This document shows positions 31,999 to 62,506 of a DNA stretch of 64,000 bases, piece by piece (position 1 is the stretch's first letter; each line of letters opens with the position of its first letter). The notes beneath the pieces were generated by a model. The model did not search any database, was not told where the DNA came from, and saw only the letters and a program-made list of their open reading frames with translations. The stretch is taken from positions 32,001 to 96,000 of the IMG/VR virus record IMGVR_UViG_3300029288_000076. One strand, written 5' to 3'. Source of the DNA: a virus (lineage: Duplodnaviria; Caudoviricetes). Both the position numbers and the translations under genes were made by a program.

Positions 31999-32046
31999 GT
32001 TTAATAAGTACTTCTTAAAATATAATATAACAAAAGGAAACTAAAA

Positions 32047-49669: not shown

Positions 49670-50263
49670 TCACTCATGTTCTATTTTCTCCTTATTGTAT
49701 CTTCGATCAACTATTATTGGAGTTTCTCCTTTTAAATCATGCTCTTTATCGATATGCCAACTTACTTCCACTTGATCATTAGAAGAAAAATCACAATAAT
49801 AACATTTATAATCTTTTAACCCATCTTTTTTAATTTTTGATAGTAAATCTTCCTCAGTAGATACAATAGTTTTTTCTTTAAATACAATAATATCATCATA
49901 AGGATCTAAATGGTGTTCTTGACTTATATGTAAAATCATATCATCTTCAACAAGACAATAGAAATCGCAATAAGAACACCAATAGTGACTTGATCGTATA
50001 TAATCATCTTTCATTCTTAGCTCAGGAGTAATTTCCTTCTTATTTTCTTCTTGAATATCCCAAAATTCTAATAGTCTTTCAATAAAAAACTTTGCTTTTA
50101 AAAGATCTTCTCTACCATTTTTAAAAAGAAATCTTGTTATATATTTAATTATAACTCCAATATGATAAGAATATTTGCCCCAGAAAGGAGCCCAAGCATT
50201 TATATAATCATTTGGTTCAAAACCAGCTTTAGCATACCATGAGTCATCTGTATATTTAATCAA
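49670..50263 (-). CDS. DUF3310-like domain fused to two C2H2 zinc fingers
   Basis: EPNDYI...GVIIKYITR...KNGREDLLKA; two CxxC-12-H-4-H units. Confidence 0.7.
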   Translation of the reverse strand: MIKYTDDSWYAKAGFEPNDYINAWAPFWGKYSYHIGVIIKYITRFLFKNGREDLLKAKFFIERLLEFWDIQEENKKEITPELRMKDDYIRSSHYWCSYCDFYCLVEDDMILHISQEHHLDPYDDIIVFKEKTIVSTEEDLLSKIKKDGLKDYKCYYCDFSSNDQVEVSWHIDKEHDLKGETPIIVDRRYNKEKIEHE

Positions 50264-55351: not shown

Positions 55352-56059
55352 TTACTCATTCACAAATCTCTTTACTAGATCTGTTTCTATATAAGAAATA
55401 GTTGCTTGAGTTTTACCTAAAAAATCTGCTATGTCTATTTGTTTTATATTACTATCAACGAGGTTCCTAAAAAAGAAAACTACTTTTTGATCTTGATTAT
55501 AAAGAGAAAAGCAACTTGTAGAAAATGAATCAAATTGACTTAAGAAAGGATTTCTAAAATCTAAATAAGCCCCATATTTATTTAATTTACGTGACAAAGA
55601 ATTCATAGCTCCAATAGATGAAAACTCAAAATCGTCTAACTCTTCAGGTAATAAATCAATACAATTATCTTGATATGATTCCTCATAAACCCTATTTTCT
55701 GGTAAAGCTTTGTTAAAAGTTACATATGAATATCTATAATGGCTTATCTCTCTCTTAATAAAATTTCCAAGACAATTAGAAAGTCTCATTCCATAATACT
55801 TTGTAAAGTTATCGTTAAGTGTATAATCGTAGAGTTTTACAGCATGGTCAAGTTCTAGATAACTTTGACTTAAAAGGTCATCAAAAAAGTCAAAACCAAT
55901 ATGCTTATTATATTTTAGGATAAGTGAATCTATAACCTTATGAGTATAAGGCATAAGAATTGAAAAAAGATCATGTAAACAAGACGTATCATTTGTCTGT
56001 TTATAAGATCCAATTATCATTAACACTACTTGTCTAAATTCTTCATAATCTTGATTCAT
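55352..56059 (-). CDS. Phage sigma-70-like factor
   Basis: DDLLSQSYLELDHAVKLYD...FTKY (region 2); QIDIADFLGKTQATIS HTH (region 4). Confidence 0.75.
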   Translation of the reverse strand: MNQDYEEFRQVVLMIIGSYKQTNDTSCLHDLFSILMPYTHKVIDSLILKYNKHIGFDFFDDLLSQSYLELDHAVKLYDYTLNDNFTKYYGMRLSNCLGNFIKREISHYRYSYVTFNKALPENRVYEESYQDNCIDLLPEELDDFEFSSIGAMNSLSRKLNKYGAYLDFRNPFLSQFDSFSTSCFSLYNQDQKVVFFFRNLVDSNIKQIDIADFLGKTQATISYIETDLVKRFVNE

Positions 56060-57554: not shown

Positions 57555-57755
57555 TCATCCTTTCTCCACTGTAGGTTTGCGTCTGTAAGTCCAGCCACCA
57601 CCTTTTAAATGAAAATTGTTTTGAGATATAATCTTAACCATTTTGATATTACAATTTGGACAAATAGGATCTCCCTCAGCATAGTCTAAATTTGATCTAA
57701 AAAGCTTCTCTTTTTTATGATGACATTTAGGACAGTCATACTCATAAATTGGCAT
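57555..57755 (-). CDS. FmdB family zinc-ribbon protein
   Basis: MPIYEYDCPKC...CPNC...IS...F.LKGGGW. Confidence 0.85.
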   Translation of the reverse strand: MPIYEYDCPKCHHKKEKLFRSNLDYAEGDPICPNCNIKMVKIISQNNFHLKGGGWTYRRKPTVEKG

Positions 57756-58106: not shown

Positions 58107-58523
58107 TTACTTTCCATTTATTTTCTCCTTTACAAGATTAATAAGATCTTGAACAGTTTCGATTCTTTCGGCTTCTTTATCTGATATTTTAATATTAAAT
58201 TCTTCTTCAGCATCTATAATAAAATTCACAAGATCAAGTGAATCAGCCCAAAGATCCTCAACAAGATAATCTTCATCTTTTATTTCTTTATGAGAATATG
58301 ATTTTAGCACACCAGTTATAATAGAATTAACTTTTTCTTTTATAATTAGTTCATCCATTTTCTTCTCACTAATTACATCTTCTTTTTTAGTGCAAGTACT
58401 TTTCTTTTGATTAGATAGCAATTCTTTATCTAGTCCAGCTTCTTTTCGTATACCGCTTGGCCATTGATTTACTTCATTTTGTGCCTTTTCAAGTTGTTCG
58501 TGATACCATACAAATTTACTCAT
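58107..58523 (-). CDS. acpP: Acyl carrier protein with N-terminal extension
   Basis: DLWADSLDLV...EEEFNIKISD..AERIETVQD; phosphopantetheine Ser in DSL. Confidence 0.85.
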   Translation of the reverse strand: MSKFVWYHEQLEKAQNEVNQWPSGIRKEAGLDKELLSNQKKSTCTKKEDVISEKKMDELIIKEKVNSIITGVLKSYSHKEIKDEDYLVEDLWADSLDLVNFIIDAEEEFNIKISDKEAERIETVQDLINLVKEKINGK

Positions 58524-58600
58524 TACTTTATCTTTATATATTATATTTTAAAAATTCAGTTATAAAAGAGGAGGGGCATTCACCACTCCTATAATAAAAA

Positions 58601-60085
58601 CTACGGCATTGGAACAATAACATGATCAACAACAATTACAGGAACAACTTCTGGTTCAACGCAACCTTTTCCAAATTTGATTCCAATAAACAAATCAGTA
58701 GCCCAATAGTTAGGATGAATGGTTACAAGACCAGTTTTAATGTCCTGACCTCCAGTATAAGAAGCATCAACACCAATAACAAATCTCTTATACTCATAAT
58801 TCAACCCAACATAAGCCCTGCCTCTTCCTAAAATATATCCCTGATCTGTGTCAGAATATCCAGTATCAGAATAGATTGCTCCATCAAATACAAATGATTT
58901 AGGATGAACTACAATAAAAACATTGTAGTATCCTGGAAGCCACTGAGCCCCAACAACTCCGCTAAAACCTTTCCCAAAGTCTTTTACATATTCAAGTCCA
59001 ACAGGAATAGAAATGATATAGAAATCATAATCTACATCTCCTGCAACTCCAAAAGAAGTTTCAGTAAATGAAGTTGTTTTCCAGTCATCGTAATAACCTT
59101 TGTGAACTTCATCATAAGGTGGCGTGTCCCAATAGCCAGCATGATATTCATCCCAAGCTGGGTGCTCACAATAACCGTCATGGTATTCGTCCCAGGGTGG
59201 TGTATCCCAATAACCTTCTTTCCATTCCCAATGGCCGCAATGCCAACCTATACCAGGATGATGCACAATCTTTGCTGGGTGATGAATCACTTTTGCTTCA
59301 TGATACTCATCCCATGCTGGGGTCCAGCATATCTCTTCACAATTATTATTTCCAGCTGGGTGACAATTACTTTGATGCCAATGACTTCGTGTTCTTGGAC
59401 GACCTTGATCAAAATGACCAGTTTCACAATTAGAAGCTTCATGATGTTCTGTCCATGCTGGAATAGTTTCATCCCAAGCAGGAATAGTTTCATCATAAGG
59501 TGGGACATCACAGTAACCTTCGTGCCATACCTTTACTTTGTCATGCCAACCTACGCCTGGATGATGTTCGGTCCAGCCTTCATGACACCCAGTAGCTTTA
59601 TGATGCTCAGTCCATCCACAGTGCCAACCTATACCAGGATGATGTTCAACCCATTCTGGATTCCACTTTCGATTCTTTTCTGTAGTGGTTTCATTAATAT
59701 TTTGGTTGGTTCTGAATCCTCCATAACCACTTTCAAACTGAACACCTAAAGTAGCATACAAACCTGGAATATAACAATCCCAAGGACTAGAAGCAACCTC
59801 AATAGCAACGACAGGATTCCAATTAAAATCCTTACTTGTAACTACAGTATTATTAATATCAAGCGTTTTAATAACTTGATATTCTTCTCCTGCAAGAACA
59901 GTTACAAGATGCTGTTGAAGTTTAGCAAATCCAGGAGGAGCCTTGACATCAGCGTTTTTATAGTTGAAAATGTAACCTGCCCTGGATCGAAAAATTGTTT
60001 CTCCTGCAAATGACGATGTAATCATAAACAGAAGTACGAGCAAAATGCTCAAGAAAACCGTGAATTGAATTTTCTTCATGTTCAC
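58601..60085 (-). CDS. Outer-membrane beta-barrel protein with a His/Trp/Cys-rich repeat insertion
   Basis: Signal peptide ending SSFA; amphipathic strands; LFIGIKF barrel terminus; internal repeats. Confidence 0.7.
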   Translation of the reverse strand: MNMKKIQFTVFLSILLVLLFMITSSFAGETIFRSRAGYIFNYKNADVKAPPGFAKLQQHLVTVLAGEEYQVIKTLDINNTVVTSKDFNWNPVVAIEVASSPWDCYIPGLYATLGVQFESGYGGFRTNQNINETTTEKNRKWNPEWVEHHPGIGWHCGWTEHHKATGCHEGWTEHHPGVGWHDKVKVWHEGYCDVPPYDETIPAWDETIPAWTEHHEASNCETGHFDQGRPRTRSHWHQSNCHPAGNNNCEEICWTPAWDEYHEAKVIHHPAKIVHHPGIGWHCGHWEWKEGYWDTPPWDEYHDGYCEHPAWDEYHAGYWDTPPYDEVHKGYYDDWKTTSFTETSFGVAGDVDYDFYIISIPVGLEYVKDFGKGFSGVVGAQWLPGYYNVFIVVHPKSFVFDGAIYSDTGYSDTDQGYILGRGRAYVGLNYEYKRFVIGVDASYTGGQDIKTGLVTIHPNYWATDLFIGIKFGKGCVEPEVVPVIVVDHVIVPMP

Positions 60086-62506
60086 TCCTTTAAAAAGTTA
60101 ATAGAAAATAGTTAATAGAAAATAGTTAATAATAGCAACCTCTACAACAAAACATATAAAAGCAACTATAAGTAACCAATTTACTATATAATTTAAAATT
60201 GTGTTCACCTCCCTTTAATCTTTAATAAAATCTGTTCCTGGCTAAAAAGAATATTTCTTTCCTTAAATGTAATTTTGATGATTCAAGTCCTATTCCTCTA
60301 ACAATCCAAGAAACAGATAGTTGAATATACCAATCAATTGCAATAACTCTATACCAACAACAATTAAAACTTCCGGTAAATCTATTCCAAAATTCGTTTT
60401 TGTGTTCTATCCAAAACCCATTATAAATACAAGGTAGCCATTTATTTAATCTTAGATATCTATTAGCAAAATATCTATTTCTAGTCATTCTTATCATTTA
60501 TCTCTTTTATATGTCTTTAAAAAGTTAAGTAGTAATCAGCACGCATATAACAGCAATAAGTGCACACACTGCTTGTATTAACACACATATTAATTGAAAT
60601 GATAGAACTGTCATTTAGAATGCTCCTTACACCAACGCTTTGCTTTTTCTTTCTCTGCAAGTTCAAGCCACTCTATTTGAGGATATAATTTACCTTCTTG
60701 ACACCATTTTACAAACGCAATAAGCTGATTATCATCTAGAATTCCTATAAGCGCGGCTATAGCAGAATCTACTGTAAACTTTAACGAATCTAAATCTTCT
60801 TTTTTAGAAAATTTATAGTAAGTTGGTTCTAGTTCCTTATTTTGAAGTATAGTTTTAAGATGACAAACTTCAGCCTCTAATTTTGTAATGCGTTCTTCTT
60901 TTGACATATTATTCCTCTCTGAAAAATAATTTTGTTTTTTAACTTCTTTTTGAAAGTTATGTTCCCATTCCATTCTATATATTTTTTCATAAATAATTTT
61001 ATTTAGAGTATCCATGTTGTATCCATAGTTATTAAATATAATATTATTTGTCTAATAAACTTCAATTAGTATAACCTGCTCTTTTTAAAAATCCTTTAAT
61101 ATCTTTTTTCCATACCCAAGGAATAATAACTTCTATATTATAACCAGCAAAACCAAGCGTTCTCCACAATTGTACATTAATGCATCCATCAGATAAGTGA
61201 ACATTTTTACGTAAAGTTTTGCTATGCCCCATTATTCTTTATAAAAATTAAATAGTTTCGTCAATTACTCTTTTAATATTTTCTAAAGTAGTACTCATAA
61301 ACCAAATTGTTGGTCTACTTTTCTCTCGCGCTTCATCTTTTAAGACGTCTACCATAGCGTTAGTAGGGAGCATTTCTTTAATTTCACGAAGAGCTTTTTG
61401 ATATTTTGTAATTTGATCAAGATCAGACATTGGTTCTCCTTAAAATTATTTCTCTTTCCTTCTTATATTTTTAATATAAGAACTAACAACATCTCTTATT
61501 TCATTATCAGTATACTCAAGCCTCTTCAGCAACAATACAAAATCTTTTACTATTTTTCCTTCGGGGCTTGCTGATTCAAATTCCTCTACATCCTTAAAAC
61601 TTATTAAAGCTCTTTCTGCCTTTTGAGCAGCTTCATTTTTACTATCCACTATTTGCTTCCTTATTAAAACCAATCATCTAAAAAGTCAATAATCTCTTCA
61701 TCAGTTAAGTGCCTTTTAGAAAAACTATTACAAGCATCAACAAACACTTTTACTTTTTCTTGCTTTTTAGCTTTCTTATTTTCAAAGTATTTATCCATAA
61801 AATGCCAACCCATTCTCCAAGAATTCCAAAGTTTTCGTGCTTTAGCTCTTGAATTTGGATTCTTGTCTAAAGCTTTTCCAATATCCCTAGCGTCTTTACC
61901 TAAAATAAAATTAGAATACTCAGGTGTTTCTGCTATAAGATTTCCTTCTTCATCTCTATATTCTTTCATTTTAAATAATCCTTAAAAGTCAACAGACATC
62001 TAAATTCATTATGATATGCTTTCCAAAACTTCTCTTGCATAAATGGACTTGTTAAATCATCAAAAAAGTTATCTATTTTATATTGGATTAAATAATACTT
62101 AACAGCACTTGGAATACAAATATCTGCAAGTTTAAAGCCCTTAATGGACATTTTATTGTTAATCAATAAATCTAGAATATTAGTACTCCATCCAACAAAA
62201 GCACTATACCCCTCAACAATAAAATGGGGATCTTTCTCAGTCGTCGTAAAACTACACTCATCCAAATTATCATAAAATTTTAATTCATAAAATAATTCCC
62301 ACATCATAGATAATTTTTCTATTTCTTCACAAGCATCAAGGAGACTCTTTTTATATTTTGTAATGATATAACTATAAGCTTCTGCTTTATGTGCCTTTTT
62401 AAAATTAAGTAGAAATCTTGCAAAAGCAATATAGAAAACAATAAATATAAAAAAGCAAAGTAATATTTCTAACATCGTCTTTATCTTATATATTTTTCAT
62501 TAGTCA

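Follow-up and report, generated by a model that had tools for sequence, protein, structure and literature searches.

A 64,000-nt stretch of a tailed-virus genome (Duplodnaviria, Caudoviricetes; positions 32,001 to 96,000 of IMG/VR record IMGVR_UViG_3300029288_000076) carries on its minus strand a gene for a probable outer-membrane protein (OMP) barrel that is interrupted by a long array of His- and Trp-rich repeats, and the structure of this array is the subject of the present analysis. We refer to the whole 64,000-nt stretch as the window and give coordinates as window positions unless another sequence is named. The source record is a virus genome of 186,386 bp (30.5% GC, estimated to be ~90% complete) that encodes a portal, a major head protein, a large terminase, a DNA ligase, and a CCA-adding enzyme. 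The barrel-protein gene sits within a long run of small, nonstructural minus-strand genes. An open reading frame (ORF) had been proposed here with a GTG start at 60085, and the ORF itself is real; that GTG, however, falls within AAGGAG (60090-60085), a ribosome-binding site placed 5 nt upstream of an ATG at 60079, and we therefore take the ATG to be the true start. The G+C content at third codon positions (GC3) is 0.24, the same as that of the phage, which rules out a recent horizontal transfer of the gene; its raised overall GC content is due to the codons for W, H, P, and G. An antisense ORF on the plus strand (59102-59749) was rejected as a by-product of the repeat codons.

The protein is probably an outer-membrane barrel, as the first-pass annotation had suggested, and the features of sequence and model that support this are a signal peptide, about eight amphipathic strands, an ending of the form IGI(K/R)F, and OMP barrels among its neighbors in the ESM Atlas. 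The signal peptide has a K-K n-region, a 20-residue hydrophobic core, and an S-F-A motif, the composition expected of a Sec signal on an OMP. It is conserved in the single homologue that we found (P0003, described below) and is the only helix modeled confidently in both AlphaFold2 (AF2) runs, with a predicted local distance difference test (pLDDT) score of 70 to 87. A crude scan of face hydrophobicity, which does not separate 8 strands from 10, found ~8 dyad-amphipathic strands in the flanks, ~3 before the array and ~5 after it; by parity, this 3 + 5 split would put the insert on the extracellular side. The homologue ends in M-I-G-I-R-F, a classical OMP C terminus with the aromatic last residue of a β-signal.

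The same protein is present in the ESM Atlas with a model of its own (pLDDT, 0.66; predicted template modeling [pTM] score, 0.46). The ten structural neighbors listed for it belong to OMP barrel families (OMP_b-brl, OmpA_membrane, Opacity, and Surface_Ag_2) or to unnamed clusters, and no other named fold is among those ten. Template modeling (TM) scores by target range from 0.38 to 0.73 and are at least 0.6 for 7 of the 10. The alignments cover 189 to 256 residues distributed across positions ~25 to 470, so that both flanks contribute. Unnamed clusters of ~300-aa proteins lead the feature-based neighbors (0.91 to 0.93), which also include OMP_b-brl, OpcA, omptin, TSA56, and Pom.

The array occupies residues 137 to 336 (numbered from the GTG), or 200 aa encoded by DNA positions 59078 to 59677, in agreement with the location of the insert given previously (59082-59660). 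Its composition is 14% H, 11% E, 10% W, 9% G, and 9% P, with D and E together at 18% and Trp and Tyr at 16%, and identity autocorrelation has maxima at lags of 7, 13, and 26. The earlier division into units (7,6,7,6,7,6,7,6,7,7,7,6, a 28-aa tip, and the same series reversed) was reproduced exactly, and the series proved to be longer than that parse by one 6-mer at each end. All of the units belong to one 13-mer family, in which a 7-mer of the form P-x-W-x-E-x-H alternates with a 6-mer bearing Gly at position 2 (x-G-x-x-x-x). Two flavors occur: type A is W-x-E-H-H / P-G-x-G-W-H, and type B is x-G-Y-W-D-T / P-P-W-D-E-Y-H. In both homologues, a 45-aa basal outgoing arm (A) and a 45-aa basal returning arm (B) adjoin the barrel; between them lie 10 residues in P0003 and 40 + 28 + 40 = 108 in the window protein. 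The arms are 51% (A) and 67% (B) identical between the two proteins, compared with 43% and 48% for the N- and C-terminal barrel parts, and arm B is the best-conserved part of the protein. The features are listed in Table 1.

Table 1. Features of the barrel-protein gene and its repeat array, by window position
Feature	Coordinates	Strand	Description	Basis or comparison
Gene	58601..60079	-	492-aa protein (P0002)	ORF, ribosome-binding site, and public gene call of 492 aa
Sec-type signal peptide (predicted)	60005..60079	-	~25 aa, S-F-A cleavage motif	Sequence; helix in both AF2 runs; equivalent in homologue
N-terminal barrel part (predicted)	59678..60004	-	~109 aa, 3 or 5 strands and a long first loop	Amphipathic strands; Atlas OMP neighbors; 43% identity to homologue
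Basal outgoing arm A	59543..59677	-	45 aa, His-type 13-mers (P-x-W-x-E-H-H + P-G-x-G-W-H)	51% identity to homologue
Distal outgoing arm	59423..59542	-	40 aa, former junction J1 followed by acid-type units that include a 7-7-7 run	
Tip	59339..59422	-	28 aa, rich in G/P/N/Q/R/S, 2 Cys, sole H-x-H of the array	
Distal returning arm	59219..59338	-	40 aa, Lys/His-type units in a 7-7-7 run followed by former junction J2	
Basal returning arm B	59078..59218	-	45 aa, acid-type 13-mers (x-G-Y-W-D-T + P-P-W-D-E-Y-H), then W-K	67% identity to homologue
C-terminal barrel part (predicted)	58673..59077	-	135 aa, 5 amphipathic strands, ending ...I-G-I-K-F	Corresponding Phe is the last residue of the homologue
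C-terminal extension	58604..58672	-	23 aa past the β-signal-like Phe, with an 18-nt tandem repeat	Absent from homologue
Terminator-like hairpin and U-run	58560..58590	-	Directly after the stop codon	Sequence; fold -12 kcal/mol, z -2.1

At every possible antiparallel fold point of the array, we counted the facing residues that are identical. The count is highest at the exact center of the array (i + j = 201), where 18 of 98 facing pairs are identical, 10 of them at the base, 5 in the distal part, and 3 at the tip. Residue shuffles gave 6.9 ± 2.5 identical pairs at the center, and only 0.4% of them reached 18 at any register; when the order of the units was shuffled and the units themselves were kept intact, none of 500 did so. 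The identical pairs include E facing E (147/326, 160/313, 173/300, and 213/260), P facing P (150/323, 176/297, 196/277, and 230/243), W facing W (154/319, 180/293, and 187/286), and C facing C (167/306 and 220/253). In the homologue, 11 of 49 pairs are identical at the exact center of the array (expected, 4.7 ± 2.1; P = 0.004), and a register one repeat away gives 12.

A palindrome of unit lengths is trivial for an array that alternates 7-mers and 6-mers, but the symmetry goes beyond this alternation at the level of residues. The central register sets the W-x-E-H-H core antiparallel to the W-D-E-Y-H core, giving the oppositions W-H, E-E, H-D, and H-W/Y, with P-G opposite P-P. Arm 1 and the reversed arm 2 gave no significant local alignment under a BLOSUM matrix; the symmetry is one of identical residues and complementary classes rather than of general similarity. 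The first-pass annotation had also described Cys residues in register and His-rich units facing acidic ones. The former holds approximately, in that three disjoint Cys pairs (167/306, 192/283, and 220/253) fall at i + j = 201 to 203 (P ~0.025 for random placement and 0.046 under a unit-aware null), although the array has an odd number of Cys. The latter holds at the level of whole arms (9 His and 5 D/E in A, 4 His and 13 D/E in B) but singles out no register, since the His-acid scan has its maximum near the center and recurs every 6.5 residues at a similar density.

We know of no DNA duplication or inversion that could yield a palindromic peptide, and the symmetry must therefore be kept at the level of the protein. 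A residue palindrome about an exact center, beyond the reach of nucleic acid duplication, points to selection for a twofold, out-and-back structure.

Relatives of the protein were sought by exhaustive phmmer against 1.84 billion cluster representatives and by a word-indexed search of 5.8 billion proteins. The one true homologue, P0003, is a 379-aa protein on a 33.7-kb Joint Genome Institute (JGI) metagenome contig, making the family two examples among ~15 billion proteins; a third phmmer match, P0004, was discarded as a low-complexity artifact. No match was found by tblastn against 50,697 phage records or by scanning IMG/VR and metagenome contigs with family patterns, and a region-limited search and a profile search with the C-terminal barrel half added no relatives. 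Back-translated unit motifs gave one chance match in viral contigs, in another frame of a high-GC tail gene (L003). Searches of the PDB by sequence with the protein and its parts returned nothing or nonsignificant hydrogenase matches (E = 0.14), and no relevant paper came from literature searches on the array motifs or on OMP loops made of His-rich repeats. The contig that carries the homologue (42% GC) has only the barrel gene and a DUF3310 gene in common with the 186-kb phage. The two DUF3310 genes (L001:2728-3213 and window 50048-50257) are 66% identical over 70 aa; the gene lies one gene upstream of the OMP gene in L001 and ~8 kb from it in the 186-kb phage.

Either half of the window array can be aligned over its full length with the complete A-J-B module of the homologue (arm A, junction, arm B; z = 12 to 13), and the array contains direct DNA repeats 303 nt apart. 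Given these two observations, the long array is a tandem duplication of the A-J-B module, which the first-pass annotation had not recognized. Tandem duplication alone would give an A3-B2 / A2-B3 order, which is mirrored in appearance. After the duplication, exactly two 6-mers were lost from each inner arm, leaving 7-7-7 runs at mirrored places, a match that pairing between the inner arms would lead one to expect.

We propose that this is a phage outer-membrane barrel whose loop array folds back antiparallel about its center as a two-armed stalk, a reading for which we judge the case to be evenly balanced. In an OMP barrel, strands adjacent in sequence are neighbors in space. Since the repeats reach both of the adjacent barrel strands that flank them, the ends of the insert must meet, which a linear solenoid cannot provide. 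Indirect support for the hairpin put forward earlier thus comes from the central palindrome, the equal 45-aa basal arms, the matched loss of 6-mers, and the topology of a barrel loop; its geometry as a ribbon is doubtful, for reasons given below. An out-and-back pair of arms with pseudo-twofold symmetry is our best reading of the array and the most economical structure for it.

The barrel, of ~8 to 10 strands, would use the host Sec system for export and the β-barrel assembly machinery (BAM) for insertion, with the 200-residue array of 13-residue units forming one extracellular loop. The array would run outward as a His-rich arm and return as an acid- and Tyr-rich arm, antiparallel about the exact center, so that W would face H, E another E, and H a D. 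With Pro opposite Pro and, in the 6-mers, Trp opposite Trp, the arms would form a two-armed stalk with pseudo-twofold symmetry. Wherever two 7-mers face each other, two Glu and two His would be clustered between Trp rings, and these Glu2His2 sites could plausibly act as a divalent-metal or pH-dependent clasp; up to three disulfides might serve as extra staples in the window protein. The long form would have grown by tandem duplication from the 45 + 10 + 45 module that the homologue retains, its inner arms then being trimmed in step. A ribbon at full extension would measure at most ~30 nm for the window protein and ~16 nm for the homologue. We infer the fold-back geometry, the metal or disulfide clasps, and the surface exposure.

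An unlikely alternative, although it survives best, keeps the same barrel and arranges the array as two side-by-side hairpins (A with B' and A' with B, the primed arms being the inner ones), or as a four-stranded meander or compact domain; the short homologue alone would then be a single hairpin. Such an arrangement would mirror the origin of the array from two tandem A-J-B modules. It is favored by the end-to-end match of each half-array to the homologue's module and by the 303-nt spacing of the direct repeats, and in the distal part of the window array the nested and two-hairpin models score similarly on residue classes. At the base, however, nested pairing of A with B gives 24 compatible pairs of 45, compared with at most 11 of 48 for A with B'. 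The arms to be paired would also have unequal unit patterns (6,7,6,7,6 against 6,7,7,7,6), and J1, which would have to turn, is an alternating, strand-like K-V-K-V-W-H, whereas it is the central 28 aa that look like a loop. Only the nested register accommodates the three Cys pairs.

It is still less probable, in our judgment, that the array has no fixed fold and is a flexible His/Asp/Glu-rich surface loop, a metal sponge or a segment that folds when metal is bound, in which case the symmetry would be structurally meaningless. Its content of His and of acidic residues would suit such a loop, His-rich capture loops occur in metal transporters, and neither AF2 nor the Atlas shows a recognizable fold for the insert. 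Against this, a Trp and Tyr content of 16% and strict 13-residue phasing are unusual for disorder, the arms are the best-conserved regions, and the exact-center palindrome demands an explanation at the level of the protein.

That the protein is not an OMP at all but a secreted or periplasmic β-rich or virion-associated protein with a repeat insert is improbable. In favor of this reading, OMP profiles fail to match the protein, the window protein does not end at the aromatic residue, and the nearest relatives of the capsid include phages of Gram-positive bacteria; against it, the named families among the listed Atlas structural neighbors are all outer membrane, five clear amphipathic strands lead to an IGI(K/R)F that is terminal in the homologue, and the gene is surrounded by small nonstructural genes.

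Several observations weigh against the fold-back stalk, among them the similar scores of the two models in the distal part. With a Pro every 6 to 7 residues and an odd period (13), it is doubtful that the arms form a flat two-stranded ribbon; kinks matched at the Pro-Pro positions, or a strongly twisted ribbon, are plausible. The window array contains nine Cys and that of the homologue none, so that the cysteines cannot be a conserved staple, and the disulfide stapling proposed in the first-pass annotation is not upheld as a property of the family. The family has two members and no Pfam domain (Pfam, PHROGs, and NCBIfam searches with the whole protein and with its parts gave no family match), and because the basal arms of the two members are homologous, the A:B palindrome counts as one evolutionary observation. 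No OMP hidden Markov model (HMM) matches the protein. At E ≤ 10, the OMP_b-brl HMM (PF13505) matched neither the whole protein, nor either barrel half, nor a six-frame translation of the genome, and the Ail/Lom HMM (PF06316) gave no match at the same threshold; we therefore treat the protein as barrel-like in fold but outside these two families. The window protein continues for 23 residues past ...F-I-G-I-K-F. AF2 with a two-sequence alignment gave unusable models (mean pLDDT, 28.3 for the full window protein and 32.6 for the homologue), and the insert of the Atlas model taken alone had no meaningful neighbor (TM ≤ 0.32). The capsid and portal are only 21 to 31% identical to those of phages of mixed hosts, and a host with two membranes is suggested solely by the architecture of one spanin-like ORF (described below).

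By analogy, our guess at the function ranks receptor masking (steric or specific, leading to superinfection or adsorption exclusion) above metal capture and metal capture above adhesion. Receptor masking comes first because of the resemblance to lambda Lom and the proposals made for the OMPs of huge phages. A more far-reaching version of the fold-back reading, which we regard as doubtful, is that the array represents a new protein architecture, in which a peptide palindrome complementary to itself zips into a rigid ribbon of two strands. Stacking of Trp and His and a Glu2His2 metal clasp at each step of 13 residues would hold the ribbon together, and module duplication at the tip with coordinated trimming of both arms would lengthen it in evolution. 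Long, barrel-anchored, metal-dependent spikes of this kind on the infected cell would keep off other phages or the phage's own progeny.

Phage OMPs are common in large phages, and the roles of their surface loops are largely obscure. If the fold-back stalk is real, it would be a new repeat fold, extendable by modules and of interest for protein design and surface display, and a natural example of paired arm evolution in a hairpin. On the surface of infected cells, it would also be a concrete candidate for a device that acts sterically or through metal in exclusion or adhesion.

Immediately downstream of the OMP gene lies a gene for a 138-aa protein (58107-58523, minus strand), the C-terminal half of which matches the acyl carrier protein (ACP) phosphopantetheine attachment domain (PF00550; E = 5e-6), including a D-S-L-D site; by sequence, a phage-encoded ACP adjoins the OMP gene. 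In the OMP itself, the 23-aa tail is rich in Val, Pro, and Ile, and part of it is encoded by an 18-nt tandem duplication. It may extend into the periplasm, or a stop codon may have been lost recently so that translation now reads through. Upstream, at about 60100 to 60200 (minus strand), a strongly hydrophobic ORF of ~33 aa follows a GGGAGGTG ribosome-binding site and lacks a canonical start codon; a 14-nt tandem repeat of 2.9 copies (60092-60131) lies at its 3' end. Further upstream, a strongly hydrophobic, Cys-rich ORF of 29 aa (60527-60613, minus strand) has an ATG that overlaps the stop codon of the preceding gene. The small genes downstream include one for a Zn-ribbon protein (57555-57755, minus strand; PF09723, E = 1e-10) and several for Cys-rich miniproteins, and the ORF at 55352-56059 has a marginal sigma factor-like PHROG match (E = 0.001).

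A 132-aa ORF at G000:C1:178522-178920 (minus strand; L004:3023-3421) is built as a unimolecular spanin would be, with a lipobox (L-T-A-C) near the N terminus and a hydrophobic anchor at the C terminus. This ORF follows a 795-aa tail fiber gene, overlaps another ORF (86 aa, with a membrane helix at its N terminus), and has no PHROG match; if it is a real spanin, it implies a host with an outer membrane. A 367-aa ORF at G000:C1:176826-177929 (plus strand; L004:1327-2430) has a weak match to the phage tubulin PhuZ (phrog_4733, E = 2.6e-6).

Among known systems, the prion octarepeat P-H-G-G-G-W-G-Q has a superficial resemblance to P-G-x-G-W-H. In the octarepeat, copper is bound by the amides of the Gly residues that follow His. 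That mode is excluded here, since the residue after His is Pro (H-P-G-x-G-W-H) and Pro lacks an amide hydrogen. The window array has 3 cross-strand Trp-Trp pairs and the array of the homologue 4, a feature that recalls the Trp-zipper hairpins, which are designed peptides of 12 to 16 residues. OMP_b-brl (PF13505), OpcA, Opa, and TSA56, the nearest structural or feature-based Atlas neighbors listed, resemble the window protein in that a conserved barrel displays a variable extracellular insert, but their loops are neither tandem repeats nor palindromes, and the PF13505 HMM does not match it.

In the needle at the tip of the T4 long tail fiber, formed by gp37, each chain runs out and back as antiparallel strands. 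Seven Fe ions are held there by H-x-H motifs (PMC11705849), making the needle the nearest precedent for an out-and-back thin rod with His-held metal. Unlike the array, gp37 is a trimeric, six-stranded virion fiber, not an OMP loop, and has no sequence similarity to it. The recurrent H-x-H is also absent from the array: H-x-H occurs at the tip of each array only, and the repeats have E-H-H, W-H, and E-Y-H instead.

The Ail/OmpX/Lom family (PF06316) provides the closest phage-borne parallel in kind, as small outer-membrane barrels with a signal peptide, a terminal ...G-x-x-R/K-F strand, and functional surface loops. The window barrel is larger (~240 aa) and escapes the family's HMM, and Lom, Ail, and OmpX have no counterpart of a palindromic loop array of 100 to 200 aa. 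According to work cited in the accessible text of a survey of huge phages, Lom of phage lambda binds LamB and thereby blocks superinfection (bioRxiv 10.64898/2026.10.24.761521). The same text reports 1,603 β-barrel OMPs in 1,303 genomes, the 8-stranded class being the commonest, and proposes that they remodel the receptor landscape (bioRxiv 10.64898/2026.10.24.761521). A large uncultured phage of 186 kb that encodes a β-barrel OMP fits this picture, but the types named in the accessible text are OmpA-like, OmpX-like, S-layer-associated, and TonB-receptor proteins, with no mention there of a His/Trp repeat stalk (bioRxiv 10.64898/2026.10.24.761521). A phage OMP as such is thus already known, whereas the proposed palindromic repeat stalk is without precedent and would be a kind of structure new to the literature.

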